A stretch of 64,000 nucleotides of DNA, from IMG/VR virus record IMGVR_UViG_3300011772_000022, positions 16,259-80,258 of that record. One strand, written 5' to 3'. The stretch comes from a virus (taxonomy: Duplodnaviria > Heunggongvirae > Uroviricota > Caudoviricetes). The notes beneath the pieces were generated by a model, which was not told where the DNA came from, searched no databases, and saw nothing but the letters and a program-made list of their open reading frames with translations. Of the stretch, positions 1,698 to 44,590 are shown one piece after another; position 1 is the first letter of the stretch, and each line of letters begins with the position of its first letter. The translations under genes were made by a program, and so were the position numbers.

Positions 1698-1950
1698 CAG
1701 TTGTGTTACGGATATACCGTTTCCGTATACCCTCTTATAGTTTCCTATAAGCTCAGACTATATCTTCAGGTTTTACCTGCTCCCCGTTTCGAGTTCACTT
1801 GAACCCTACGTCTCTCGACTAGTCGTTGAACCTTCGTGTATAGGTGTCTCTCGACGACTATAGTTGCTTGGCTGCTGATTACCCTCGACTTTACGTTAGG
1901 GCTTCCCAGACAATTAGAGGAGTTTATAAAGGAGACCTAGTTGTTGGTTA
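1698..1950 (-). other. putative self-splicing group I intron interrupting polymerase motif A (boundaries approximate)
   Basis: The upstream ORF ends ..NWWMTVGDLTNN* (T7-like WVQAGID with the catalytic Asp). The downstream ORF resumes ..GQMELRMTAHL after a ~250-nt gap. Joining after the U of GAT-T and before TA-GGT (following an intron-terminal G) gives WWMTVGD-LGQ-MELR, matching DYSQIELR. ACTGTAGG is present at both junctions. Confidence 0.5.
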
Positions 1951-3481
1951 AATCTCCTACAGTCATCCACCAGTTACGCTGAAGCTCTTGGAATGCATCA
2001 CGAATCTTCCATTGGATTTCATAACCAGTATGTTCCGGAGTACCTTCGTCACATGGTTCGAACTCTTTATCTTTCTCATTGTATCTAACAGGAACAACCG
2101 TAAACATAAACGCTTTCTGGATTGCCACCTCTAAAGCATTCGGGTCATCCTTATGTTCCTCACGTAATGGGTCAACCACCTTGTCATATTCTTCAATTGT
2201 AATGAAGTCCTTGAAGATGGCGCCACTCGGTAGATTCTGAAGGTTCGGTCCAGATGACGATAGACGACCTGTAACCGTACCTGTTTGATGGAAGGAGCCA
2301 TGTACCCGACCATCAATATCGATTGCCTTGATGATTCCTTTTACGTAAGTAGATTCAGTCTTTTTCAGTTTACGATATTTCAAGATTAATTCGATAAGTT
2401 CTAAGCCTTCCATTGTCAGGTCAGCCAGTGTTCGTTCTTCCGCAGCTTCTCGACCCATTTTCAATAACTCTTTTAGTGTAGCAGCATCAACCTTAACTGC
2501 CCCCTTGTCCGTCTTCGCAATGATAGGAAGTTTCTTCTCGGCATGTAGTACCTCTGCTAATTGTGGTCCACTTCCAATAGAGAATTCGTGTCCGGCTAAA
2601 GCGAAGATTTGTTTCTCAAGGATATCCATTTCTTTTAAGCAGCGGGCACCGATTGCTTCCAGTACCTCTTGGTTAACAGGCATACCACGTCGTTCTATCC
2701 CTTGAAGTACCCCAACGAACGGCATCTCCACTCCGAATAGAACATCAATAAGTTTCTGCTTTTGTAACAACGGATAGTATTTGATGAACAGTTTAGCAGT
2801 CGCCACAATATCCATCAGTGCGTACGGTAAGGTTAATGTAGCTGAAGCCTCATGGAACCGAAGTTTCTTCCCGAGAATCTTATCGAGCTTATTCATATCC
2901 ATCCCAAGGTCTTCTTTCGCCACGTACTTCAAACCGAAACGTTGACGTTCTTCTTTTACGAGCCATGCCATTACCTGTGTATCAGCACAGGATGCTCTTT
3001 TTGGTAGCTCTTCAATATGTTTCGCCATTGCTTCTTTCGTTTCCGGAGCCACCCATTTCGGTACACATAATTTCGGTCGTAAATCAATACCAACATTCAA
3101 GAAGATATCAGCATCATATTTCAGGTTGTGGGCAATTATCATCTTGTCGAAGTCCAAGAAGAATTCCTTCAGTGCCTCTACAACCATTTTGCGATTTAAG
3201 TATCCAGTCGTTCCCACAACCTTCTCTTGGTCAAGGTGGTACATCGTTGGAATGTACGCCGCATATTCTAGTTTCGTAATGTCATCGTCGATAATACCAA
3301 TACCGATACCACAAATTTCTGCTTTTAAGAATGATAGGTCAGTAGTCTCTAAATCGTACACAATATATTTTGCTTTCTTCAGCCGTGCTAATAACCTTTC
3401 TAATTGCATATGATACACAAGGATATTCTCAGCGTAATCAGGTAATTCTCTTACAGGTCTCTCCAATACTGGTGCTCCCAT
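1951..3481 (-). CDS. DNA polymerase I family, exon 1 (3'-5' exonuclease motifs YDLETTDL, HNLKYD, YALMD; thumb/fingers ..TGRLSSSGPNLQNLP)
   Basis: Conserved Exo I-III and polymerase motifs. Start set to MGAPVLE (ATG 3479-3481) behind RBS AAGAGGAGGAAACGGAA. Confidence 0.8.
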
Positions 3482-3575
3482 TTCCGTTTCCTCCTCTTTA
3501 AGTGAAAAGAAAGTACGTTCAGGTGTTGCGACCATGACGTACTTTCTTATAAGTGTTAAGTTTTAGTGTGCTAGA

Positions 3576-5478: not shown

Positions 5479-5694
5479 TTATTCCGGGTTTCGAGCAATT
5501 GCGGCGTTTGCCCACATCATTGCTTCCTCAAGTTTCGTTTTAGCAAGTGATAACTCTCTTGAGGGTGGACATAGTGAATCTAGTGTCTGTGCTAAGAATT
5601 GGCATTTATTTCTTACCAATTCATGTGATTGTGCCTTATTTCCAGTTGGTGCATGATAAGCGAAGTTATTTTCATTTGACCCGATTGCCGCCAT
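5479..5694 (-). CDS. hypothetical protein (71 aa)
   Basis: RBS AAAGGGAGAGAAGCAAA before the ATG. Confidence 0.45.
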   Translation of the reverse strand: MAAIGSNENNFAYHAPTGNKAQSHELVRNKCQFLAQTLDSLCPPSRELSLAKTKLEEAMMWANAAIARNPE

Positions 5695-5748: not shown

Positions 5749-6060
5749 TTAACCGTTATTTTCAGCTTCTTCAAATTTTTCTGTTGCCTCTTCAAAAGCC
5801 TTGAACACCGCTTCTTTAAAACCATCAGGAATTGGTAACCCTTGTTTTAAATCGTAAGCATCCACTGTTCGTTTAATGGCTTTGATTTGGTCAGTTGAGT
5901 ATAATCGTCTTCCAGATTGCGCTCGATATGTTGCAGCAGGGATGATTCCGAGTCTTTCCCATTTGCGAATCGTTTGCCCTTGACGTTCTAGCTTATTAGC
6001 CAGTTCTCCGATAGTATGCAATTCGATGTCTTTACCACCTATAGTGTAGATTTTGCCCAT
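5749..6060 (-). CDS. MerR-family helix-turn-helix DNA-binding protein (start re-assigned to MGKIYTIG)
   Basis: YTIGELANKLERQGQTIRKWERLGIIP is a MerR-type HTH; RBS AAAGGAGGAAAGAAC before ATG 6058-6060. Confidence 0.55.
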   Translation of the reverse strand: MGKIYTIGGKDIELHTIGELANKLERQGQTIRKWERLGIIPAATYRAQSGRRLYSTDQIKAIKRTVDAYDLKQGLPIPDGFKEAVFKAFEEATEKFEEAENNG

Positions 6061-6098
6061 GTTCTTTCCTCCTTTCATGCCCTGCCCGAACGACATCA

Positions 6099-6623
6099 TT
6101 ACTTCTTCTTAGCTACTTTGAAGGCATACGTTACTTCACTTCTTGTAACGTTCTTTAACTCTTCCTCAGAAATTCTCTCTCCAAGGTATGCCTGCTCAAG
6201 TGCCTGTGGTGACACTTCAAATTCTACATCATCAACCAGTTTAGAATTGTAAAGCAGTAGCTCATCTAAAATGGCTTTCGGTTCGATGTTATTGAATTTC
6301 GGTGTCAACAACTTATGAAGTTGACGTTTCTGGAATAACTTAACGCTTTCCTCTTGATTTATTTTGACAGAAGTTCGAGCTTCTTTTTTGATTGATGACC
6401 CATCCTCTAGTTTAATCATGTAAGAACCTTTGTCATCTTGTTTTCCTTCAGCCTCAGCTAAGTCAAATGCACGTAGACGTATGTGTTTTTCGTAGGCTTT
6501 CAATACCTCCGCCAGAGATTTTACTCGCAGAGCATTACGTGAAACCTCCGCTGCTGATAATTCTGTGATGTTCGTATCTAGACCCAATACCTCTAACATT
6601 GCTTTTTCATTTGTTTCAAACAT
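6099..6623 (-). CDS. hypothetical protein (174 aa)
   Basis: RBS TAGGAGGAGACAAATT before the ATG. Confidence 0.5.
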   Translation of the reverse strand: MFETNEKAMLEVLGLDTNITELSAAEVSRNALRVKSLAEVLKAYEKHIRLRAFDLAEAEGKQDDKGSYMIKLEDGSSIKKEARTSVKINQEESVKLFQKRQLHKLLTPKFNNIEPKAILDELLLYNSKLVDDVEFEVSPQALEQAYLGERISEEELKNVTRSEVTYAFKVAKKK

Positions 6624-16249: not shown

Positions 16250-16656
16250 TCTCCATAATGATAAATTTCACCTACATGCTGCACCCATTTCTCTTTACGT
16301 TTGTTTTCTACGGAAGCATGTAATGGATTATTATAAAAGTAAAAATGTATATGTCGTCGAGAAAGTAACATTTCTTTCTCCTTATTATCCTTCATAAAGG
16401 ACAACTTGGTATACGGAAAATCAACGTCGTCAAGTTTACCTTGTATGACCGCCTGTTCCTTTTCATCGTAACCGTGCCCGACCAAGTAAACACCAATACC
16501 ACGGTACATGATTGTATCCAACACCGGGACTGACTTCTTGTTCACTCGCAAAGATTTAGCGAACCCAAATAGTTTGGATTCGCTAAGGATGACGAGATTG
16601 TCAAGGTCAATCACAATGGTTGGTGCAAGCTCATTGCTTATGTCACCACCTAGCAT
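16246..16656 (-). CDS. hypothetical protein (136 aa)
   Basis: ORF coupled to its neighbours. Confidence 0.5.
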   Translation of the reverse strand: MLGGDISNELAPTIVIDLDNLVILSESKLFGFAKSLRVNKKSVPVLDTIMYRGIGVYLVGHGYDEKEQAVIQGKLDDVDFPYTKLSFMKDNKEKEMLLSRRHIHFYFYNNPLHASVENKRKEKWVQHVGEIYHYGE

Positions 16657-17358
16657 TTAAACCCCTCCATATTGTTCTCGTATTCTTCTTGCTTCCTGTA
16701 TTTTACGCCAATCCGGAAATGAGGATTGGTCCTCAAAATATAGTTTAATCGTGTTGCCTTCAATTAAAGATGCAACGGATACACCATACGTTTGTGATAA
16801 CATCGTAAGGGAAGCATTTGTCGTAAAGATTGTGGGTAGTAATCGATTGGTACGGTAGCGAATCAGTTCATCAAATACAGATGGAGCTAGTTCGCTGCGC
16901 TCTGATTGGAACCCTTTACCTACATCATCGACAACTAAAAAATCGCTATTCTTCACTCGTTTATCGTACAGGTCTGCTTTGCCGGAATCATACCATGCTC
17001 CTGCATAGAGATTAATGATTCCTGCAAGGTTTGCGAATTGCGTTCGGAATCCCTGCCTGATAGCAGCCTTTTGGACCGATACGGCAAGGTGGGTTTTGCC
17101 CACCCCGTTCATACCGTATAAAAATATTCCAGTACCTTCTTTACGATGGGTACGGATTCTAGCCGCATAATCGACCAGAGTTTGTGCCGTTTCAAAACGT
17201 TTGGGAATGATTACTCCACTATTATCTCGTATAGGGAAAGTTCGAAAATCGGCGGGATAGTATTTTTCTAATATGCCATGTCTTCTTTGTGTTTTAGGTT
17301 CCAAAGGACCGAAGACGTCACTCCCAATTAAAGTTTCCAGTTCCGTCATTGCCATCAT
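16657..17358 (-). CDS. helicase loader, DnaC/IstB-like AAA+ ATPase
   Basis: GMNGVGKTHLAVSV Walker A; FLVVDDVG Walker B. Confidence 0.7.
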   Translation of the reverse strand: MMAMTELETLIGSDVFGPLEPKTQRRHGILEKYYPADFRTFPIRDNSGVIIPKRFETAQTLVDYAARIRTHRKEGTGIFLYGMNGVGKTHLAVSVQKAAIRQGFRTQFANLAGIINLYAGAWYDSGKADLYDKRVKNSDFLVVDDVGKGFQSERSELAPSVFDELIRYRTNRLLPTIFTTNASLTMLSQTYGVSVASLIEGNTIKLYFEDQSSFPDWRKIQEARRIREQYGGV

Positions 17359-18364
17359 TCTTTTTCACCTCTGGTTTGTACTCTCTCGCACTCGATTTCT
17401 TTTGTTTTGCCGCTGAAGGATTCAGCATTTGAGGGATTATCGTGTTTCTATAAGCAAAGAAAACACCGAAGTTAGGGTAACCCTCTGGCAAATACGTGAG
17501 TTGTTTGTAGTTTTGTAGATAGAAGTCAATCGCATCAGCAACCTGTTCTGGCTCATATGCCGTCAGCAAGTTCTTGCATTGTCCTCTGTCCTTGTTCGTT
17601 GAAGCCGGAGATGTAATCCCCAGTTCCAATTTATACATATGTCGGAAGTAGGCAACTAGATGATTCGCATTCCATTTGCTCCGTGGGAGGTCTTGGAATC
17701 CTTTACCTCGTTTGTCCTTCTTCGTCGGTTTTTCTTCTGGTGCATATAGTTCATCTAAAACGTTCGGGATATCTTCTTCCGCTACCTCGTTTGGTTTGTC
17801 GGAAGGCATAACCACTTTAATGTTCTTTAGTCGTTCTGTGTCATCGGTAAAACTCATATCAGGTTCCGCCTCTGTCTTTTTTTCCTGTGGCGGTTCAGGT
17901 ATAGGTTCTTGATTCGGCTTTTGCTTCGGCTCCGGAGGTGGCGGTGGTGTCATACCTTCCTGTGCGACCATGTAAACAGAGGTGTGATTCTCTCTGGTGT
18001 AACCACCAAATGAACCCTTCTTGGTACAGACCACATAACCATCATCCATTGCTCGTTTGACCCCATCACTACATGCAGGTCTTGATAAACCAGTTAGCTT
18101 TTCAAATTGCGACAGGGACACCGCATCTTCTTCCTTGTAGACGGGCGCCCCTGTATCTTGGTCAATATGGCTTACCCACCCGTAAGTTTTACGGAACAAT
18201 GCCAACAAGACCTTTAATTCAGATAAACTTTTAATGTTGGGTAATGCTTCATCGAAAAACTCGTTGGGTATTGAAGTAAACCCTTTCATGTCCAACCGTG
18301 GTTTAAATCCGTTAAATTTGTTTCCCTCTTCCATACGTTTCATCCCCCATGAATATAATGTCAT
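17318..18364 (-). CDS. putative replisome organizer / replication initiation protein (N-terminal DnaD-like HTH, Pro-rich linker)
   Basis: The N-terminus resembles the phage replisome-organizer domain; PPPPPEPK linker. Sits directly upstream of the DnaC/DnaB pair. Confidence 0.45.
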   Translation of the reverse strand: MTLYSWGMKRMEEGNKFNGFKPRLDMKGFTSIPNEFFDEALPNIKSLSELKVLLALFRKTYGWVSHIDQDTGAPVYKEEDAVSLSQFEKLTGLSRPACSDGVKRAMDDGYVVCTKKGSFGGYTRENHTSVYMVAQEGMTPPPPPEPKQKPNQEPIPEPPQEKKTEAEPDMSFTDDTERLKNIKVVMPSDKPNEVAEEDIPNVLDELYAPEEKPTKKDKRGKGFQDLPRSKWNANHLVAYFRHMYKLELGITSPASTNKDRGQCKNLLTAYEPEQVADAIDFYLQNYKQLTYLPEGYPNFGVFFAYRNTIIPQMLNPSAAKQKKSSAREYKPEVKKNDGNDGTGNFNWE

Positions 18365-27155: not shown

Positions 27156-27191
27156 AAAGACCACCCCTATTCGGAGTGGTCTTCTTTTTCG
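27156..27191. terminator. hairpin AGACCAC..GTGGTCT plus TCTTTTTC overlapping the stop of the FtsK-like gene
   Basis: aaagaccacccctattcggagtggtcttctttttcg. Confidence 0.4.
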
Positions 27192-28639
27192 TTCAAGTCT
27201 TCAGCTCTGAGAATGTGAAAGGTTGAGTCGCCCAAGTCTTCTGGAAATTCAATCGGAGGTGTGTCGATTGGAGGAAGAGAAGATTCGAACACCTCTCTGT
27301 CATATTGTACCCGCATTTCCTCCATATATTCATGTGCCTTCTTCGTAGATAAAAATGGTACCTGAACCTCCGTTGTTAGATGACCAGATTGCAGGATAGC
27401 CCGCCCGGGAATATTCGGATTCAATTTAGCAGCTCCATCCTCTTGTTCACCTAGTAAGATTCGAGAGTTCAATTCATTCCGTACCCTGAATGCAACCGTT
27501 ATCGGGATATTGGCTTTACTATCACCCGGAAGTACCTTTGCATCCGGACGTTGAGTTGCCACGAATAAATGTATCCCTAATGCTCTTGCTAATCGTAGCA
27601 GCCTGTTAATCATGGAATGGGTGTATTCTAAAAGGTCTTTGGCTTTCATCATTCCCTTAGGTGGAGCCGAATTACCTTTAGTAGGTACAATGTTCAATCC
27701 ATAGATATAATCCTGCAAGTGTTCCGGGATGTTCCATAGCTCACTCTTCCCTACGCTTTCTGGTGAGAGTTCCGCCAGTTCATCGATAACCAACAAAATG
27801 TATGGTAGGTGCCCGACTGCTTCACGATACTCTCGAATGTTTGTGACCCCTGCATTGTAGAAGTCAGCCTGACGTTTATCCATTTCGGCTTCCACCGTTC
27901 GTAGCACTTCAAATGCTGAGAAGGCTTCCTTTGAGATTTCCCTGACATGTGGAGCATTTTTAAATAATTGAAATTCAAGACCTCCCTTTAAATCAATCAT
28001 ATAAATTTCTAAGTCGGTCGGTGTCTTCAGTGACATGAGTGATGTAAGAGCCTGCCGTACGAATACGGATTTACCTCCACCAGTTTCCCCACCGACCAAG
28101 ATGTGTGGACGTTTACCTAAGTCAACAATCTGTAAACCTTTCTTGCTCTCTCCTATAATGATAGGAAGTTCCATTCCTTCGGCTCCATCAAATCGTCTCG
28201 TGCTGAAAGTTTCTTGATGTTTTAAATGACCAGTTGAAATTTCCATTACGCAATACTCATCCTCCTGATACGTTCCAATCTCGGCATTGAGGTTTAGTTC
28301 AATAGCCGGAAGTTTACGGTTAATATCATCGATAGACATACCTGCGGGAAGTTTAAAATAGGCTTTGTATAAATAGTCCTCCTTTCTCTCCTCTTTTATA
28401 TAAGAAGGCGTGTATCTTTTGGTCTCACCTAAAAGCGGTTTGTGTTCCTTGTATAATCCGAATGACTCCCAGTTGTTAGCCAAGCGATAAGTTAACGGTG
28501 ATTTGAAGCGGTGGGTCTGATAAATTTTAAACCCCGCATAAGATGTTAAAGCAATGCCACCAACCTTAAATACATTTGCACCAACAATTTTCATAGCGGT
28601 TCCCAATACCGCCGGAGTAAGAATACTCATCAGTCCCAC
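27167..28639 (-). CDS. FtsK/SpoIIIE-family DNA-translocase-like ATPase with an N-terminal membrane anchor
   Basis: N-terminal hydrophobic segment; Walker A VGGETGGGKS; Walker B LLVIDE; the conserved ATQRP motif of the FtsK family. Confidence 0.75.
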   Translation of the reverse strand: MGLMSILTPAVLGTAMKIVGANVFKVGGIALTSYAGFKIYQTHRFKSPLTYRLANNWESFGLYKEHKPLLGETKRYTPSYIKEERKEDYLYKAYFKLPAGMSIDDINRKLPAIELNLNAEIGTYQEDEYCVMEISTGHLKHQETFSTRRFDGAEGMELPIIIGESKKGLQIVDLGKRPHILVGGETGGGKSVFVRQALTSLMSLKTPTDLEIYMIDLKGGLEFQLFKNAPHVREISKEAFSAFEVLRTVEAEMDKRQADFYNAGVTNIREYREAVGHLPYILLVIDELAELSPESVGKSELWNIPEHLQDYIYGLNIVPTKGNSAPPKGMMKAKDLLEYTHSMINRLLRLARALGIHLFVATQRPDAKVLPGDSKANIPITVAFRVRNELNSRILLGEQEDGAAKLNPNIPGRAILQSGHLTTEVQVPFLSTKKAHEYMEEMRVQYDREVFESSLPPIDTPPIEFPEDLGDSTFHILRAEDLNEKEDHSE

Positions 28640-29958: not shown

Positions 29959-30435
29959 CTATGACGTGACTAGTAAGTAGGTGAATACGACTCCTGTAAG
30001 GACAAAGATGACAGCCTCAGATATTTTCCCTGTTCTATATGTGATAGGTGCTTTGTATTTCTTTTTACTAAATGGTGCAAGTAAGGGTACCCCTGATTTG
30101 GAGAAGTAATCCCCTAGTATATGAGAGGCGTATCCGAATATTAATCCCGCCGAAAAGGATAATGGTAATACAATTGCGGGGATTAATGCTAATGCTCCTA
30201 CGATTAATGTACACGGAATGGAATGAGTGAATCCTCGATGACCACATAATTTATTAACCAATTTGGATATCGGTTTTAATCTTCTTCCTATATAAGAATT
30301 AGGATGGTCAATGTCAGGTAATGTTGAACCTAAAATCACTCCGCCGTAAAACCCAATCGAGAATGGGGCATTTGCTACTCTCATTACTCCTTGCGCCAAG
30401 GTAACCGATGTAAGCATATGAGTTTGATACAACAT
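29959..30435 (-). CDS. YdjM/DUF457-family membrane-bound metal-dependent hydrolase
   Basis: Multi-TM with HRGFTHS and HILGD motifs; RBS AAAGGTGGGATTTTT before the ATG. Confidence 0.6.
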   Translation of the reverse strand: MLYQTHMLTSVTLAQGVMRVANAPFSIGFYGGVILGSTLPDIDHPNSYIGRRLKPISKLVNKLCGHRGFTHSIPCTLIVGALALIPAIVLPLSFSAGLIFGYASHILGDYFSKSGVPLLAPFSKKKYKAPITYRTGKISEAVIFVLTGVVFTYLLVTS

Positions 30436-30484: not shown

Positions 30485-30563
30485 GCAATCTTTAGTTTAT
30501 TTATAGCTTTATATTGTTAGTTAAAATTCTTAACCTCATGTGGTAAAGAATCTTTACCTCATT
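30485..30563. repeat. conserved ~78-bp intergenic element, copy B
   Basis: gcaatctttagtttatttatagctttatattgttagttaaaattcttaacctcatgtggtaaagaatctttacctcat; same orientation as copies A and C. Confidence 0.8.
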
Positions 30564-30843
30564 CACTCTTTTTGTGTATCTCACCTGTCATCGTTATTTC
30601 CCAGATAGTCGGTTGAATCAAGAAATAATATTCAGGTGTCGCAAGCGGATTCGGTATGCATTTAGTACGCAGAGTCCATTTGATTGAATAGTTATCAAGA
30701 GGGACACCTTTATCTTCGAAGTATCCCGTAATGGCATGTTGCATCCGATTTGTTTCTAGATGTATCTGGTCATCCGTCGGTGCCTCAGTGCATCCCCATC
30801 TGGTCGATAACATTGCGCTGCTACCTATGAATTCATCTCTCAA
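30559..30843 (-). CDS. hypothetical protein (94 aa); its 3' end overlaps repeat copy B
   Basis: ATGA coupling with the upstream gene supports it, but the C-terminus runs into the repeat. Confidence 0.35.
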   Translation of the reverse strand: MRDEFIGSSAMLSTRWGCTEAPTDDQIHLETNRMQHAITGYFEDKGVPLDNYSIKWTLRTKCIPNPLATPEYYFLIQPTIWEITMTGEIHKKSE

Positions 30844-31245: not shown

Positions 31246-31539
31246 CTTTTGTAGTTTGGTAATCTCTCTTGTATCATGACGTAAGCTCAAGTTCGGTTCC
31301 TTCGCAATCGGAATATTATACTTCGCACGAATCTCATTCCACCATGCTTCATCCTCTTTCATAAGTTCAGCACGTTGGTCTTCAATCTGCTTCAGCATAT
31401 CGTTGTTCGCTTTACGTCTGTAATTAATAGCGATAATTTCCTTTAGTTCACCCTTACTAATAACCGCAAGAGTTTCTACAGAAGTGTCAGGACCGTTACC
31501 TAAATCCATGCCGATAATTTCTTTTTTCTCTTCAGCCAT
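31243..31539 (-). CDS. hypothetical protein (98 aa)
   Basis: ATGA-coupled to the SPFH gene. Confidence 0.45.
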   Translation of the reverse strand: MAEEKKEIIGMDLGNGPDTSVETLAVISKGELKEIIAINYRRKANNDMLKQIEDQRAELMKEDEAWWNEIRAKYNIPIAKEPNLSLRHDTREITKLQK

Positions 31540-32420
31540 TACTTCTTCACCTCACCTTTCAATAATTCGCTTGGCATGTTAATGATTGAGCTTCCACCAC
31601 TTACAAGCGGTTGCTTACCATCCCATTTCTTAGCGATTTCATAGTTGATGATGTCAGGAGATAATGATTGTTGTAACTCTTTATTGGCTTTCGCTTCACC
31701 TTGAGCAGCGATAACCTTTTTATCTGCCTCACCTTGAGCCTCTGCACGTTTCTTATCGGCTTCAACCTTAGCAGTTTCTAATGCTACCTTCATAGTTTCT
31801 TGTGCCTGTTGAGCATCTACTTTCGTATTGATTGCTTTCATAGCACCTTCGTCAGGTCGGATTTCACCAAGTGTAAATTTCTCAAGGTTGATACCATCTA
31901 CCTTTAATCGTTTTGCTAGGTTGTCCTGTACCTGTGTTTGAATCTCACCACGTTTTTCACCATATACTTCTAAAATGCCATATTTAGACGTTACTAATTG
32001 TATTGCATCCTGAAGTTGAGATTTGATATATGTTGCTTCAATCTGTTCTGAGGTTTGACGTTTGAACTTCGTGAAGATGTGTGGCAGCTTTGAAGCCTCC
32101 ATATTGTACGAATACATCACATCCAAGTTCACTGGCTTACCTTCAGAAGTGGATACGTTTAATGAATGGTCTTCATCTTTCGTCTTCTTTAGGTATACAG
32201 TTTCAGTCGATACCGGATAAGCCGTTACTGACTTCCACGGTAGAACAGGTTTCAAACCTTGTCCGAGTGTTTCTTCTTCGAGTCCACCCATCTTATTGTA
32301 TACAACACCTGCATACCCCGGGGTAATTTGTACTGAGCAAGCAGCGAATCCTCCGACCGCCAATGCAATTGTGCCACCGATTACGGCAGCGCCTCTTTTC
32401 CAAGTTTTAAATGGATTCAT
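31539..32420 (-). CDS. SPFH/band-7 (stomatin/prohibitin/HflKC-like) membrane protein
   Basis: N-terminal TM helix, SPFH domain, and a long Ala/Gln/Glu/Lys-rich coiled-coil (KVDAQQAQETMKVALETAKVEADKKRAEAQGEADKK). Confidence 0.75.
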   Translation of the reverse strand: MNPFKTWKRGAAVIGGTIALAVGGFAACSVQITPGYAGVVYNKMGGLEEETLGQGLKPVLPWKSVTAYPVSTETVYLKKTKDEDHSLNVSTSEGKPVNLDVMYSYNMEASKLPHIFTKFKRQTSEQIEATYIKSQLQDAIQLVTSKYGILEVYGEKRGEIQTQVQDNLAKRLKVDGINLEKFTLGEIRPDEGAMKAINTKVDAQQAQETMKVALETAKVEADKKRAEAQGEADKKVIAAQGEAKANKELQQSLSPDIINYEIAKKWDGKQPLVSGGSSIINMPSELLKGEVKK

Positions 32421-32562: not shown

Positions 32563-32969
32563 TTTCTTCTCACCACCTCTCGTCCTAATACCTATTATAA
32601 GATGTATTAGCAAATATTACAAGACATAAAAAAGAAACCTACCACATATAATGATAGATTCCTCTTTTAACTTAATTGTGTATCGCCTTTAGGCTTTTGA
32701 TTTTTTGGTTTTTTGGGTGTAACACATCGACGTGCGACGAAGGATAAAGGTCTATGCTAATCTATAAACCAAAGATGCGGTACGGTTCTTAGCTCCACCG
32801 TGGAGAAATACGTTATCCTGCGTATCCAAACCTCCTAGTTGCGTTAAGAGGTTTCATAGAGATGAGTAAAGAGGGTTCAGTACCCTCTAACTCATGCAAT
32901 TATCGCCGCATGGGGTCGTTGTAATTACAAACTAATTGTACCACATATTTCCTGCCTGTACAATCCCTA

Positions 32970-32998
32970 TAGACAACGGTTCTTCCAACCGCTATAAT
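32970..32998 (+). promoter_or_regulatory. sigma-A-type promoter for the HNH gene: -35 TAGACA, 17-bp spacer, -10 TATAAT
   Basis: tAGACAacggttcttccaaccgcTATAATga, about 20 nt upstream of the HNH ATG. Confidence 0.5.
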
Positions 32999-33015
32999 GA
33001 AATAAAATATGTAGG

Positions 33016-33543
33016 ATGGAGGAACACAAGTTGGCTTCATGGAATATTGGTGACCAAGTATTTTATTTTACTATCTTAGAAAAAACAAATGAAAAGAAAA
33101 GAGGGTATTATCTTTTTAGAGCAAGATGTGTATGTGGAAAAGAAGAGTTAATTCACAAAGGACAGATATTCCCAGACAGAAAAACATCATGTGGTTGTAT
33201 TCGACATAACAAATTAGTGGCAAGAAATAAGTCACATGGTCTTTCTAAACATCCGTTATACGCTCGATGGAAGCAAATTCGTAATCGATGTCACAATCCT
33301 AATTCAGATAAGTACATATTCTATGGAGCAAGAGGTATCGAGATGTGTGAAGAATGGAGGTCGAACCCACAAGCGTTCTTTGATTGGTATTTGAGTAAAA
33401 CAGATGACCTTTCATTAACCGTAGACCGTAAAGATAATAATGGTAATTATGAACCTGATAATTGTCGTCTCATTACCATACAGGAACAACAAAGAAATAG
33501 GAGACCTCGTTCCTGTTATAGAAGAGAAAAGGATGCTCAGTGA
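33016..33543 (+). CDS. free-standing HNH homing-endonuclease-like protein (only plus-strand gene in the window)
   Basis: SKHPLYARWKQIRNRCHNPNSDKYIFYGARGIEMCEEWRSNPQAFFDWY is the phage HNH_3/AP2-type endonuclease signature; it has its own promoter and terminator. Confidence 0.75.
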   Translation: MEEHKLASWNIGDQVFYFTILEKTNEKKRGYYLFRARCVCGKEELIHKGQIFPDRKTSCGCIRHNKLVARNKSHGLSKHPLYARWKQIRNRCHNPNSDKYIFYGARGIEMCEEWRSNPQAFFDWYLSKTDDLSLTVDRKDNNGNYEPDNCRLITIQEQQRNRRPRSCYRREKDAQ

Positions 33544-33558
33544 GCATCCTCTTTTTAT
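33531..33558. terminator. bidirectional rho-independent terminator shared by the HNH gene (plus) and the holin gene (minus)
   Basis: aaaaggatgctcagtgagcatcctctttttat; T-runs on both strands. Confidence 0.55.
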
Positions 33559-33776
33559 AGCAAGTTGTTATCTTTTAATACTTCTTTTTGAGCAATGCCC
33601 TTCGAAGTTAGGTACGTATTCTTCCACCCACAATAAAGGATGTACACACCAGATACAACCGCAACAATATTGTTCGCTAAACCTTCGTCGATAGTTTGAT
33701 AACCTACTAAGTTAAGAACGGAGTTAATTACTGCAATAACTAAAAGGATGTAGCGTGAGATTGAAGCCTTGTCCAT
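33555..33776 (-). CDS. holin (start re-assigned to MDKASISRY; the track M is a GTG)
   Basis: RBS GGAGGTGGGAATT before the ATG; ~73 aa, one or two TM helices, charged C-terminus; immediately upstream of the endolysin. Confidence 0.6.
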   Translation of the reverse strand: MDKASISRYILLVIAVINSVLNLVGYQTIDEGLANNIVAVVSGVYILYCGWKNTYLTSKGIAQKEVLKDNNLL

Positions 33777-42000: not shown

Positions 42001-43248
42001 CTAGTAATAGTTAAATTGGTCTCGACCGTCAAAGAATGGAGCGTTTGATTCGTACCATAATTGAATCTCTTCCGCCGAGAATGTTTTAGATGGATGTATC
42101 GCCAAGTGTTCAAATAATGTATTTGGAGTTAACCCGGTATCGTCCCATCCAATTCGCATATACTTCATTGTGTAGTCAGAAAGGATATCTGTTTTGGCAG
42201 CTGCAATTAGCGTTCCATTGAAATAGACCTCTTTGTTATTTCCATTCGCCATCCCTTGTTTATCCCACTGAATAACAACGTGACACCAGTTACCAACATT
42301 TGCGTAAGTGCTGATAATCTGAGGGAATTGTAAGTCATGATTTGTAAATGTTTTATCAGCATTTGTCTTTCGTGTCCAGAAGTTAAGTCGCCTAGCACCA
42401 TTCATCATGAAGTTGATTGTATCTCCATAAATTGCTCCACTATTATCAGGTCTGTTTGTCCCGAATTTTACGGTGTACACATTGTTACCTGATTTTGCAT
42501 TGAAGAACGAATCAGTCAGATACATCCAGAATGATGCACAACCTCTGTCTTTCATGTTTAATTGGGAAACATCCCAAGTCGCACTAAGAGTCGGTCGATT
42601 ATCTTTTACGTAAGACGTACTAAATTTCAGCTCTTCTAACTGTGGGTGCCATACATAACAAGGTGTAGTAGTCCCTGCGAAACCACCTGCCCACATAATA
42701 GCCCGTACCGCCGTCCGAGTATTTGTAGCAGTGAAGATACACGTTACATCATAACGTTTCCACTCTACTGACACATCGAAGGTTGTCGAGGTTGCTTCTA
42801 CGTTATTGGTATCTTGAACCTTAACAGTCACCTTAGAGGGTACATCCGAACGTAACCATACAGATAGTGTAAAAGGTCGATTCGCTATAGCAGTTGTTGC
42901 ATAGTCCGTATATAAATCCTGACTAATAGCGGTTGGACTAATCTTAAAAGCGGTTTGCCCACCTTCAGGGTCTAGATGACCTTTTGTTACTGTCGATACC
43001 GCCATACCTGTCCATTTCGTTAAGTCCTCAGGAAAGGGAATTAGGTTTACGGTACTTCTATCGATTGCTAGAGATTCACGGAATTTCTTTTCATCCTTTC
43101 GATATACCTCAGGTCCCGTCGAAAGAATAGGAATTGTATCTGTCGTATCTCGCAATGTTCCTGCTAATGGAAATAAGAACATTCCAGTTGGTAGATTTGG
43201 AGCATGTTTTTGCAGTTGCAAAAATGAACCATCATGAGCCATTACCAT
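42001..43248 (-). CDS. LamG/concanavalin-like tail protein, paralog 2 (start re-assigned to MVMAHDG)
   Basis: RBS AAGGTAGGTGATTTTAGT before the ATG; C-terminal EEIQLWYESNAPFFDG. Confidence 0.5.
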   Translation of the reverse strand: MVMAHDGSFLQLQKHAPNLPTGMFLFPLAGTLRDTTDTIPILSTGPEVYRKDEKKFRESLAIDRSTVNLIPFPEDLTKWTGMAVSTVTKGHLDPEGGQTAFKISPTAISQDLYTDYATTAIANRPFTLSVWLRSDVPSKVTVKVQDTNNVEATSTTFDVSVEWKRYDVTCIFTATNTRTAVRAIMWAGGFAGTTTPCYVWHPQLEELKFSTSYVKDNRPTLSATWDVSQLNMKDRGCASFWMYLTDSFFNAKSGNNVYTVKFGTNRPDNSGAIYGDTINFMMNGARRLNFWTRKTNADKTFTNHDLQFPQIISTYANVGNWCHVVIQWDKQGMANGNNKEVYFNGTLIAAAKTDILSDYTMKYMRIGWDDTGLTPNTLFEHLAIHPSKTFSAEEIQLWYESNAPFFDGRDQFNYY

Positions 43249-43288
43249 ACTAAAATCACCTACCTTAAAAGTTACTAAAAAGTGCATT

Positions 43289-43370
43289 GCAATCTTTAGT
43301 TTATTTCTCTTTATATTGTTAGTTAAGATTCTTTACCTCATAGAAGTAAAGAATCTTTACCTGATATAAC
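43289..43370. repeat. conserved ~78-bp intergenic element, copy C (tandem palindromes GTTAAGATTCTTTAC / GTAAAGAATCTTTAC)
   Basis: gcaatctttagtttatttctctttatattgttagttaagattctttacctcatagaagtaaagaatctttacctgat. Confidence 0.8.
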
Positions 43371-43375
43371 CAGAA

Positions 43376-44590
43376 TTATCCATATATGATGGAATAATCG
43401 TATGGGTCATACATGCGTTTTCCATAGGCAAACCACGTTGAAATCTCGTAATCTGGTACAACTCTCGGACAAATTAATAGGTCGGCATATTTCGCCCTAC
43501 TATCTTTTAGCTCAACGAACTCTACTATTCCAAGTTTCGTGATAATGTTACCTGTCCAGAAGACACCATTTCGATAGAATCGGAAAGCATTCTCCGCAGC
43601 TGAGAACGTAATCGTTAACATTTCCCACTCGCCCGGAACAAATTTCTTTGTCGAAATCAAGTCCGTATATTGGCGGGAGCCAGAAGCATTACTCCCAAAG
43701 TCAGCAATTAATCTTCTGTTCGATACGTCATCAGTTGTTGGATTGTATCTCCATAACTTCAACATCGCCGTACCTGTATCTTCCCCGAAGCTAATGATTC
43801 GAGAGTAAGAATTCTGTCCAAGTACATTCTCATTAAAGGAAATCCAAAAGTTAATCGTGAAATCTTTCGGGGGAAGTAGCTCTTTCGGATACTTAACATG
43901 CCCTGTTTTTTGAGTAGTTTCTGTGAATTCCGTTAATGTACCTTCTTCAAGTTTTGCTTTACGTAAGTACATGTAAGACACATTCTTCAGCTTTAACGAC
44001 TCATCACCCGGAATCATTAGGTCTAACGCACGTACCGTCGTAACACCTTCAGGCATGGTGAATGTTGCTGATGCTCGATACCATCCGTCCTGTAAAGGAA
44101 CAACCTTTGCATCAAGAATGTTATGCCCAATGTTTGTTAGGAAGAAAGAAATATTCATCTTTCCGGGTTGGTCACCATCAGTACGAAATTCGACACTCTC
44201 TGTATACGTTTTTCCTGCAACAACTGGAAATGCTTTAGCAACTGTATACTCAGTTCGAACCGTTCCATCAGCAGTTATCATTGGGATACGAACCGTTCTA
44301 AAACCGTCCACCATTCCAAGGTCCTCAGCATTAGATTGGTCTTTATTTGGGTAGTACCCATAAACAGAAAGTAGATGATTTTCAGGGAGCATGTTTGTTG
44401 TTTGCTCCTCGATTGCTACGACCTTTCCGAATCTTGGGTCCGGAACCATTAGTGCCGTATTCACATCTGGATGGATTCCTCTTGCCGAAGAAGTGTGCCA
44501 ATAAAACGGGAATAAAACGTCTTCGGAATTGACAGGGAGAATAATATCTCCCGCCATTCCTAAGGGTGAACCATAATGTGATTTATTCAT
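43376..44590 (-). CDS. LamG/concanavalin-like tail protein, paralog 3 (404 aa)
   Basis: FTINFWISFNENVLGQNSYSRIISFGED... jelly-roll; C-terminal ISTWFAYGKRMYDPYDY. Confidence 0.5.
   Translation of the reverse strand: MNKSHYGSPLGMAGDIILPVNSEDVLFPFYWHTSSARGIHPDVNTALMVPDPRFGKVVAIEEQTTNMLPENHLLSVYGYYPNKDQSNAEDLGMVDGFRTVRIPMITADGTVRTEYTVAKAFPVVAGKTYTESVEFRTDGDQPGKMNISFFLTNIGHNILDAKVVPLQDGWYRASATFTMPEGVTTVRALDLMIPGDESLKLKNVSYMYLRKAKLEEGTLTEFTETTQKTGHVKYPKELLPPKDFTINFWISFNENVLGQNSYSRIISFGEDTGTAMLKLWRYNPTTDDVSNRRLIADFGSNASGSRQYTDLISTKKFVPGEWEMLTITFSAAENAFRFYRNGVFWTGNIITKLGIVEFVELKDSRAKYADLLICPRVVPDYEISTWFAYGKRMYDPYDYSIIYG

Follow-up and report, generated by a model that had tools for sequence, protein, structure and literature searches.

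The 64,000-nucleotide stretch of phage DNA studied here (IMG/VR record IMGVR_UViG_3300011772_000022, positions 16,259 to 80,258; Caudoviricetes), which we call the window, carries between its genes a repeated element of about 76 nt that is built on two tandem palindromes, is always oriented with the genes, and is under purifying selection. By analogy with control cassettes of other phages, we propose that the element is a composite of a hairpin or operator with a factor-dependent promoter and leader, and that it serves as a portable gene-start module; we put the probability of this reading at roughly 45%. The phage of the window, that is, the 64 kb together with the sampled flanking contigs, is designated W. 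It has a contractile tail and a genome of at least 106 kb, and its nearest cultured relative is Bacillus phage BCD7, with a protein identity of 36% for the sheath and 45% for the capsid. A relative, MTEU01003794.1 (107,890 bp), which is 78-90% identical to W, is designated M. All copy numbers of the element are minima, since the sample covers neither some 23 kb of the W genome nor the greater part of M.

The element occurs three times in the window, at 789-865 (copy A), 30486-30564 (copy B), and 43290-43366 (copy C). All three copies are on the minus strand, which carries nearly all of the genes of the window, and their pairwise identity is 84-89% over 76-77 nt. A first-pass annotation of the window had described three copies, each with tandem 15-bp palindromes about 24 bp apart, and this description holds, with the extents now refined to those given above. 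The pattern GTWAAGAWTCTTWAC with up to two mismatches was found at exactly six sites in the 64 kb, two in each copy, with 0.93 sites expected in shuffled sequence and none out of 100 shuffles reaching six. The palindrome centres are 24, 23, and 24 bp apart in copies A, B, and C, respectively. The family is larger than the three copies first described because a profile made from them detected a fourth, copy D, on the gene strand at 9600-9683 of contig L003, about 190-270 nt past the end of the window and between the major capsid gene and the next gene, and because M has five. In the public Logan assembly of the same phage (SRR1749594), contig 622 (86.5 kb) and contig 2365 (20 kb) both terminate inside copy A, as is expected when a true repeat breaks the de Bruijn graph.

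Each element consists of two palindromes of 13-15 bp with the core AAGAWTCTT and centres 23-25 bp apart, an upstream one (P1) and a downstream one (P2) on the gene strand, and P2 is joined rigidly to AACAAWAKAAAG. A variable linker follows AACAAWAKAAAG and leads to TAAATAAACTAAAGATTG, which often lies directly next to GGAGG. The repeated unit, present twice per element, is 20 nt long and is made up of ATSAGG and the 15-nt palindrome GTWAAGAWTCTTWAC; P1 and P2 repeat each other in both direct and inverted orientation and are separated by a spacer of 8-10 nt. The gene-strand consensus reads ATSAGG-GTWAAGAWTCTTTAC-(8-9 nt ending ATGAG)-GTWAAGAWTCTTAAC-TAACAAWAKAAAG-(2-4 nt)-AAATAAACTAAAGATTG, of which the 17-mer AAATAAACTAAAGATTG is invariant across copies A, B, and C. 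Copy C begins 9 nt past the stop codon of the gene at 43376-44590 and lies between two distantly related LamG-type tail-fibre genes. Pattern scanning placed its P1, GTAAAGATTCTTTAC, at 43346-43360 and its P2, GTAAAGAATCTTAAC, at 43322-43336, the latter being followed rigidly by TAACAATATAAAG. Its A-rich block, TAACAATATAAAGAGAAATAAACTAAAGATTG, at 43290-43321 is predicted to be unstructured and is a candidate promoter or 5' leader. Copy B (P1 at 30543-30557, P2 at 30520-30534) overlaps the TGA stop codon of the gene at 30559-30843 and is upstream of the YdjM-like gene at 29959-30435. Copy A (P1 at 845-859, P2 at 821-835) is upstream of a Cys-rich 81-amino-acid open reading frame (ORF) at 532-777, and its final 3' G is the first base of the GGAG Shine-Dalgarno (SD) sequence at 786-789. 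The copies had been said to lie 20-50 nt upstream of a gene preceded by a ribosome-binding site. This is so for copies B and C, where the gap from the end of the element to that site is about 40 and about 30 nt, and not for copy A, where there is no gap at all.

The two genes that flank copy C (42001-43248 and 43376-44590, minus strand) both encode LamG/concanavalin-like proteins that match the same tail-protein PHROG. With an identity of 22% they are anciently diverged adjacent paralogs and candidates for receptor-binding proteins. A recent duplication of these genes that carried the element along was ruled out by this low identity (E = 0.057), and the element is not the end of longer duplicated genes.

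The five copies in M came to light when metagenomes were scanned with the pattern. Four of them are the orthologs of A, B, C, and D, and the fifth, copy E, precedes a gene for a 199-amino-acid protein in a region outside the W sample; like the copies of W, they are all on the gene strand. Between W and M, the orthologous elements are identical at 295 of 305 positions (96.7%) compared to 2129 of 2416 (88%) in the homologous and mostly coding flanks (Fisher p = 5e-7). Copy C is 100% identical to its ortholog in M and its flanks are 83-85% identical. The few differences affect the palindromes at their central base, the spacer at its first bases, and the linker that precedes AAATAAAC. The element is thus under purifying selection and, since orthologous copies cluster together, the family is older than the split between W and M. 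In the M contig around copy E (L027, 76-2382), the 199-amino-acid downstream protein matches a PHROG annotated as queuine tRNA-ribosyltransferase, which hints at 7-deazaguanine DNA modification in this phage group, and an ORF of 302 amino acids (76-984) lies upstream.

The element is also present beyond M. Contigs retrieved through capsid-protein homologs show a homologous element behind the capsid gene of relatives whose capsid identity is about 64-78% (L021/L039, L032, L033, L034, L035/L042, L040, L041, L044, and L049). These post-capsid elements have in common two TAAAGAATCTTTA cores, (T)AACAAAAGAAAG at a fixed distance from the second core, a block resembling TAAATAAAACTAAANATTG, and an SD sequence. 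An orthologous copy before the YdjM-like gene is found in L088, whose major capsid protein is 70% identical, and second copies are present in contigs of 105 kb (L137) and 37 kb (L142). The distance from the P2 centre to AACAA is identical in 18 of the 18 elements compared and that from P2 to ATTG is 35-41 nt, with 46 nt in L041. Around the constant core AAGAWTCTT the flanks of the palindromes are specific to the lineage, AGG...ACC in W and M and CTAC...GG in the L040 group, and are alike among the copies of one genome, which points to a co-evolving trans-acting factor or to gene conversion. In more distant relatives and in BCD7 there is only a plain intrinsic terminator after the capsid gene. 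The element is lacking in L043, L045-L048, L060, and BCD7.

The strict element pattern was absent from 185,579 bacterial species genomes, and a relaxed pattern gave mostly operator-like pairs of Bacteroidales unrelated to W; a host chromosomal repeat was therefore rejected as the source of the element. Megablast against 50,697 GenBank phages found no close DNA relative and blastn with the element itself gave chance matches only. No Rfam family reached the gathering score for the element, the sole match at that level in the window being a group I intron, and an E-value search of 43200-43450 gave only sub-threshold chance matches to miRNA and snoRNA families. A literature search for the palindrome sequence returned no relevant paper.

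The 5' end of the element is 0-25 nt past the stop codon of the upstream gene or directly behind a canonical terminator, the latter being the case for copy A of W, for L088 (GACACCC...GGGTGTC then a U-tract), and for L049. In W the terminator is GAGGCTA...TAGCCTC followed by TATTTTAT at 903-939 on the minus strand; it ends the DNA polymerase gene and is about 40 nt upstream of copy A. In these three contexts the element is essentially the sole sequence between the terminator and the SD sequence. A gene that follows a strong terminator would need its expression to be restarted, and since hardly anything else is present in these intervals, the cassette would be what restarts it. At the other end, ATTG adjoins GGAGG or a similar SD sequence in about 8 of 14 contexts, namely, in copies A and D, in the A ortholog and copy E of M, and in L040, L049, L088, and L142, and the gap is 25-55 nt in copies B and C, L021, and L042. 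These data show that the idea of a strand-oriented intergenic element linked to gene starts was well founded.

Comparison of W with M also bears on gene exchange. Next to two of the copies, homology between the two stops exactly at the element's upstream end: for copy A this is position 873, M having one more small gene there, and for copy B it is 30565, the gene on that side having been replaced. At both junctions the element has stayed linked to its downstream gene while the upstream neighbour was inserted or replaced. The first-pass annotation had suggested a recombination hotspot with copies B and C bracketing an exchangeable block of 12.7 kb. The association with mosaic breakpoints is real at these two of the four orthologous sites, but the block itself had to be given up because the region between B and C is syntenic in M apart from small local changes.

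In every copy, P1 and P2 are predicted to pair into a hairpin of 17-19 bp immediately 5' of the A-rich block, with folding energies of -13 to -25 kcal/mol and z scores down to -5. In copy C the hairpin is about 18 bp long and contains a single internal mismatch (-20.7 kcal/mol, z = -4.4). The stems in W and M have 0-2 mismatches, and the stem in L033 is 23 bp long. The complementarity is not confined to the palindromes: around P1 it extends up to 11 bp, with 83% pairing over 11 pairs and two-sided changes at 6 of them, and the ends of the spacer pair as TTC/GAG, CT/AG, or TGG/CCG. The spacing of the centres is 23-25 bp in 16 of 18 elements and the two exceptions, 37 bp in L033 and 47 bp in L034 (spacers of 22 and 32 nt), keep the pairing, in L033 through a self-complementary extension of the spacer by 8 bp that lengthens the stem and in L034 with P1 inside an 18-bp stem. 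Where Watson-Crick pairing is lost, the sense strand mostly has G.U instead, about 10 as against 3. The complementarity beyond the palindromes, the extension in L033, and the odd spacings suggest that formation of a hairpin has also been selected. Recognition at the DNA level is favoured by the strictly conserved core, by the freedom of the central base, and by the retention of imperfect palindromes as sequence. Covariation of the central bases of P1 and P2 was considered as well. It was seen in 4 of 4 copies at first and then in 6 of 8 independent copies, which is not significant, and shuffle-based covariation statistics are inflated by the relatedness of the sequences.

The element is not an intrinsic terminator. 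Its hairpin is A/U-rich and is followed not by a U-tract but by UAACAAUAUAAAG, the terminator scan did not report it, and the canonical terminators of W (903-939 and 33527-33553) look unlike it; the first-pass annotation had likewise set a simple terminator aside. A scan for the sigma-A consensus with at least 9 of 12 matches detected no promoter on the gene strand in any copy. Ordinary promoters are readily found elsewhere in W, for example TTGCAA-16-TATAAT at 496-523 on the minus strand just past the Cys-rich ORF, and the same consensus scan gave near-consensus promoters at 29717-29689, 32622-32594, and 12248-12221. We also looked for a -10 hexamer conserved in position. Most elements have candidates between +16 and +34 relative to the P2 centre, copy D of W, L040, and L042 having none, and in such AT-rich sequence the candidates are unconvincing.

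If the element is a gene-start cassette, it could work as follows. The palindromes would be the recognition site of a sequence-specific factor encoded by the phage, either with each of them binding a dimer as double-stranded DNA or with both folded into the single hairpin, which in that form may be a barrier or a 3' end for transcripts arriving from upstream. The A-rich block would provide a weak, factor-dependent promoter and an unstructured 5' leader from which expression of the downstream gene is restarted. With a transcription start near ATTG, P2 would be centred at about -36 to -41 and P1 at about -60 to -65. That the restart depends on a phage-specific factor is suggested by the poor match to sigma-A together with the concerted variation of the copies within genomes. 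The scattered, nearly identical copies of about 76 nt might at the same time be patches of homology for the insertion and replacement of genes. The window yielded a single classical helix-turn-helix (HTH) regulator, a MerR-type protein of 116 amino acids encoded at 5749-6099 on the minus strand (PF13411, E = 2.3e-6), and it is only a candidate for the protein that binds the palindromes.

Several observations count against a promoter cassette. The best sigma-A candidate, TTAACT-N16-19-TAAACT, has 8 of 12 matches, its spacing is variable, and it is not conserved in the relatives. The gene in L137 is separated from the element by a sigma-A promoter of the extended -10 type, which makes the element dispensable as a promoter there. 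A start site within the element in copies A and D would put the SD sequence at the extreme 5' end of the mRNA, and a scan of approximately 60 window proteins revealed no sigma factor, RNA polymerase, or activator. Without a U-tract, terminator activity of the hairpin is doubtful. Two small hairpins and one long P1:P2 stem are inseparable by pair counts (74% and 72% paired) because each arm is itself palindromic, and the asymmetry between sense and antisense folding that is seen for the bare hairpin is inconsistent or lost once the flanks are included. Finally, W and M show no breakpoint at the edges of copies C and D, and other breakpoints between them are away from any element.

A wider form of the proposal is that the cassettes make up a phage-wide regulon under a phage factor that recognizes the AAGAWTCTT palindromes. 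They would then represent factor-dependent promoters of a new class, or else a hairpin switch that is bistable between one long and two short stems, in Firmicute-type myoviruses, and would coordinate genes across modules and double as a recombination substrate that shuffles accessory genes. We regard this as speculative and rather unlikely. If it were true, the regulon would include the gene after the capsid gene, a tail fibre gene, the YdjM-like hydrolase gene, the gene for a zinc-ribbon protein, and a gene of the packaging region.

Instead of restarting transcription, the element may act only in RNA. The P1:P2 hairpin in a polycistronic mRNA would then be a processing or stability site, cut by host RNase III or a phage nuclease or acting as a barrier to 3'-exonucleases, and the purine-rich, unstructured block would be a new 5' leader and translation enhancer, with no promoter being involved. 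The extent of the element from just past a stop codon to at or near the SD sequence agrees with this, as do the stability of the sense-strand hairpin, the covarying complementarity of flanks and spacer including the 8-bp extension in L033, and the bias of non-Watson-Crick positions toward sense-strand G.U pairs. The plain terminator hairpin found after the capsid gene in distant relatives and BCD7 argues that a hairpin role at that site is ancestral, and RNase III of Bacillus subtilis has a narrow specificity with known targets in phage SP82 (PMC4838370, PMC1935012). On the other hand, several copies are directly behind strong canonical terminators, where little RNA is expected, and for RNase III a stem of 17-19 bp that contains one or two mismatches is on the short side. 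A role in RNA alone also does not explain why each half is palindromic, why imperfect palindromes (TCTAAAG) are kept as sequence, or why the 35-nt downstream block is conserved in sequence and not just in composition, and neither an Rfam match nor a consistent strand asymmetry in folds of the whole element was found. We consider this reading unlikely, though the strongest of the rivals. The opposite possibility, which develops the operator proposed in the first-pass annotation, is that a dimeric phage repressor bound to both palindromes blocks or times read-through, with neither a promoter nor a role in RNA, in the manner of classic tandem operators or of the stoperators found in L5-type mycobacteriophages. 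The strict core and the lineage-specific flanks that the copies of one genome share do imply a trans-acting factor with sequence specificity. The free central base, the regular spacing in 16 of 18 elements, the fixed orientation and intergenic placement, and the presence of the MerR-type gene all fit such an operator, and identical tandem palindromes 22-25 bp apart recur elsewhere in DNA-level contexts where protein binding is the natural reading (iterons of initiator genes, and 100-130 nt upstream of MacB/FtsX genes in Bacteroidales). Yet a pure double-stranded operator leaves unexplained the equally conserved 35-nt A-rich block and its coupling to the SD sequence, the hairpin potential kept by the two lineages with 37- and 47-bp spacing, the spacer extension in L033, and a complementarity of up to 11 bp around P1 that exceeds the typical footprint of a dimer. 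Moreover, the phage looks lytic and the window has no integrase or repressor module. This explanation is improbable.

The palindromes could also be replication sites, iteron-like and bound by the O-like initiator encoded at 17318-18364, with the A-rich block as the unwinding element, so that the copies would be several origins, as are oriL and oriR of SPP1, or sites that titrate the initiator. Bacteroidota phages do have the same palindrome in arrays of 2-5 copies within their lambda-O-like initiator genes, with AT-rich DNA after the array, and the initiator gene and replication module of the window contain no iteron array of their own. However, no homolog of the DNA-binding domain of the Bacteroidota phage initiator (HTH_36 profile) was found in the approximately 94 kb of W examined or in the M sequence. 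The Bacteroidota phages infect another phylum and their close relative FCV-1 uses different iterons, which makes the sequence identity probably coincidental. Origins would not be expected to keep a fixed, gene-oriented position after the capsid gene and before SD sequences, and there are only two repeats per site, 12-46 kb away from the initiator gene. These facts make replication sites very improbable. Hardly credible, in our view, is a selfish or neutral repeat of the repetitive extragenic palindromic (REP), bacterial interspersed mosaic element (BIME), or miniature inverted-repeat transposable element (MITE) type that spread through the genome with no function for the phage. A multi-copy extragenic palindromic repeat that sits after stop codons and at mosaic junctions has the look of one. 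But such a repeat would not be expected to keep orthologous positions across relatives with 70-95% capsid identity, to be better conserved than the neighbouring coding sequence, or to have always the same orientation and coupling to the SD sequence; there are no terminal inverted repeats or target-site duplications in the aligned flanks, and the element in this form is absent from the bacterial species genomes searched.

Other features of W were noted in the course of this work. The GGAGG ribosome-binding sites, the near-consensus TTGACA/TATAAT promoters, the canonical terminators, an SPP1-type holin, and a GH25 lysin suggest a host of the Firmicute type. A group I intron (RF00028, 80.7 bits) at 1734-1991 on the minus strand, between the ORFs at 1937-3535 and 946-1689, splits a family-A DNA polymerase into an exonuclease/N-terminal exon and a C-terminal exon. 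M has about 456 extra nt at this site, possibly a homing endonuclease gene. The gene at 5479-5694 (minus strand) encodes a 71-amino-acid protein with an Acb2/Tad1 hairpin domain (PF24729, E = 1.8e-22) that is probably a cyclic-nucleotide sponge against CBASS or Thoeris. An FtsK/SpoIIIE-like ATPase of 490 amino acids (27167-28639, minus strand) and an SPFH/Band-7 protein of 293 amino acids (31539-32420, minus strand) are unusual genes of the host-takeover type in the early or accessory region. The only clear plus-strand gene, at 33016-33543, encodes a protein of 175 amino acids with no family match; it comes with a promoter of its own, TAGACA-17-TATAAT, and with a terminator at 33527-33553 that is bidirectional. 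The 613-bp unit at 32964-33577 is missing from M and looks like a moron-type insertion. About 9 kb past the end of the window, just upstream of the large terminase gene, there is a 500-nt non-coding region (L003, 800-1310) in which a perfect AT palindrome of 39 nt is followed by C-rich (CACACCCCGAC) and G-rich (GGCAGG/AGGAGG, AGAGGCAGTGAGT) repeats; this region may be the packaging site or the genome terminus.

To our knowledge, repeated intergenic control cassettes have been documented in only a few phage groups, namely, the PeSLs of T4-like phages and the SAS/ESAS and stoperators of mycobacteriophages. They are one of the few handles on the organization of transcription and on gene exchange in large phage genomes that are mostly unannotated. 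The conserved 76-nt element described here is a precise target for finding the regulator and marks junctions where accessory genes are swapped. If it has the proposed activity, transcription units and module boundaries could be predicted in the metagenomic genomes of the clade, and the element would be a compact phage-specific expression part.

The palindrome itself recurs in Bacteroidota, where the same 15-bp palindrome GTAAAGAWTCTTTAC is found in tandem with a period of 22-25 bp next to AT-rich DNA. In Bacteroidota phages (L004-L024; for example, L014, 7083-7166), 2-5 exact copies with a period of 22-24 bp, followed by AT-rich DNA, lie inside a winged-HTH (HTH_36/DnaD_N-like) initiator gene that adjoins DnaC-like and DnaB genes; the repeat encodes GSKESLLG peptides, and the arrangement is that of a lambda-O-style origin within the gene. 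Many Bacteroidales genomes from rumen and gut (GTDB loci L145-L176, such as L166, 4873-4905, and L165, 5148-5181) also have this palindrome as a pair, with a spacer of 7-9 nt. Of the 8 loci examined, at least 5 have the pair some 100-130 nt upstream of an ABC-transporter gene or some other gene, MacB/FtsX having been confirmed by Pfam for two. This pair appears to be an operator motif, and a full-text search for its sequence gave no paper on it. These sites differ from the element in being inside initiator genes or upstream of ABC-permease genes, in belonging to another phylum, and in having no A-rich block coupled to an SD sequence. Homology to the Bacteroidota phage iterons was ruled out since W has no related DNA-binding domain, the host phylum is different, and FCV-1 has other iterons. 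Hence we treat both kinds of site as analogues and not as homologues.

In their placement the copies resemble the RNase III sites of phage T7 (R0.3-R18.5) and those cut by the B. subtilis enzyme in phage SP82 (PMC4838370, PMC1935012), where similar hairpins are repeated between a stop codon and the next SD sequence in co-directional polycistronic units of early and late regions. The predicted stems of the element are shorter, a long conserved single-stranded block follows the hairpin, and some copies are behind terminators. Closer in design are the SAS (start-associated sequences) and ESAS (extended start-associated sequences) of Cluster K mycobacteriophages, whose function is still unproven (Pope et al. 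2011, PMC3203893; PMC12699233). These too consist of imperfect inverted repeats, a short spacer, and a conserved motif that includes the ribosome-binding site immediately before the start codon. They occur in one orientation in many copies per genome, stay with a given gene family, and have a repeat consensus that differs by sublineage. However, the 13-bp SAS consensus GGGATAGGAGCCC is unrelated to the start-adjacent motif of the element, AAACTAAAGATTG(GAGG), the ESAS half-sites are 17 bp long and not each palindromic, and SAS are present in about 10-19 copies, mostly outside structural genes, in phages of Actinobacteria. The resemblance is an analogy of design and not homology.

The nearest parallel to a gene-start cassette is with the PeSL and PmSL (stem-loop) cassettes of T4-type phages, in which a stem-loop is followed by a promoter and then by the SD sequence and ATG and which lie at indel junctions between close phage pairs (PMC2839356 Arbiol et al. 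2010; PMC4122927 Comeau et al. 2014). In both cases a composite of about 70-80 nt is repeated across a large myovirus genome, a stem-loop of lineage-specific sequence stands just upstream of an AT-rich promoter region, predicted as such in W, the SD sequence and start codon of the downstream gene are at the 3' end of the cassette, and insertions, deletions, and replacements between close phage pairs are found at the cassettes. The differences are also clear. PeSL promoters are close to the sigma-70 consensus or have a MotA box and their stem-loops are experimentally effective terminators, whereas the element reaches only 8 of 12 matches to sigma-A and has no U-tract. Its stem-loop consists of two tandem 15-bp palindromes with a strictly conserved core. 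PeSLs cluster in hyperplastic regions, whereas there are only about five copies of the element per 108 kb and several of these are at orthologous positions among core structural genes, in an unrelated, BCD7-like lineage with Firmicute-type signals. The element carries the notion of a repeated control cassette over to an uncultured clade of BCD7-related myoviruses of about 90-108 kb.

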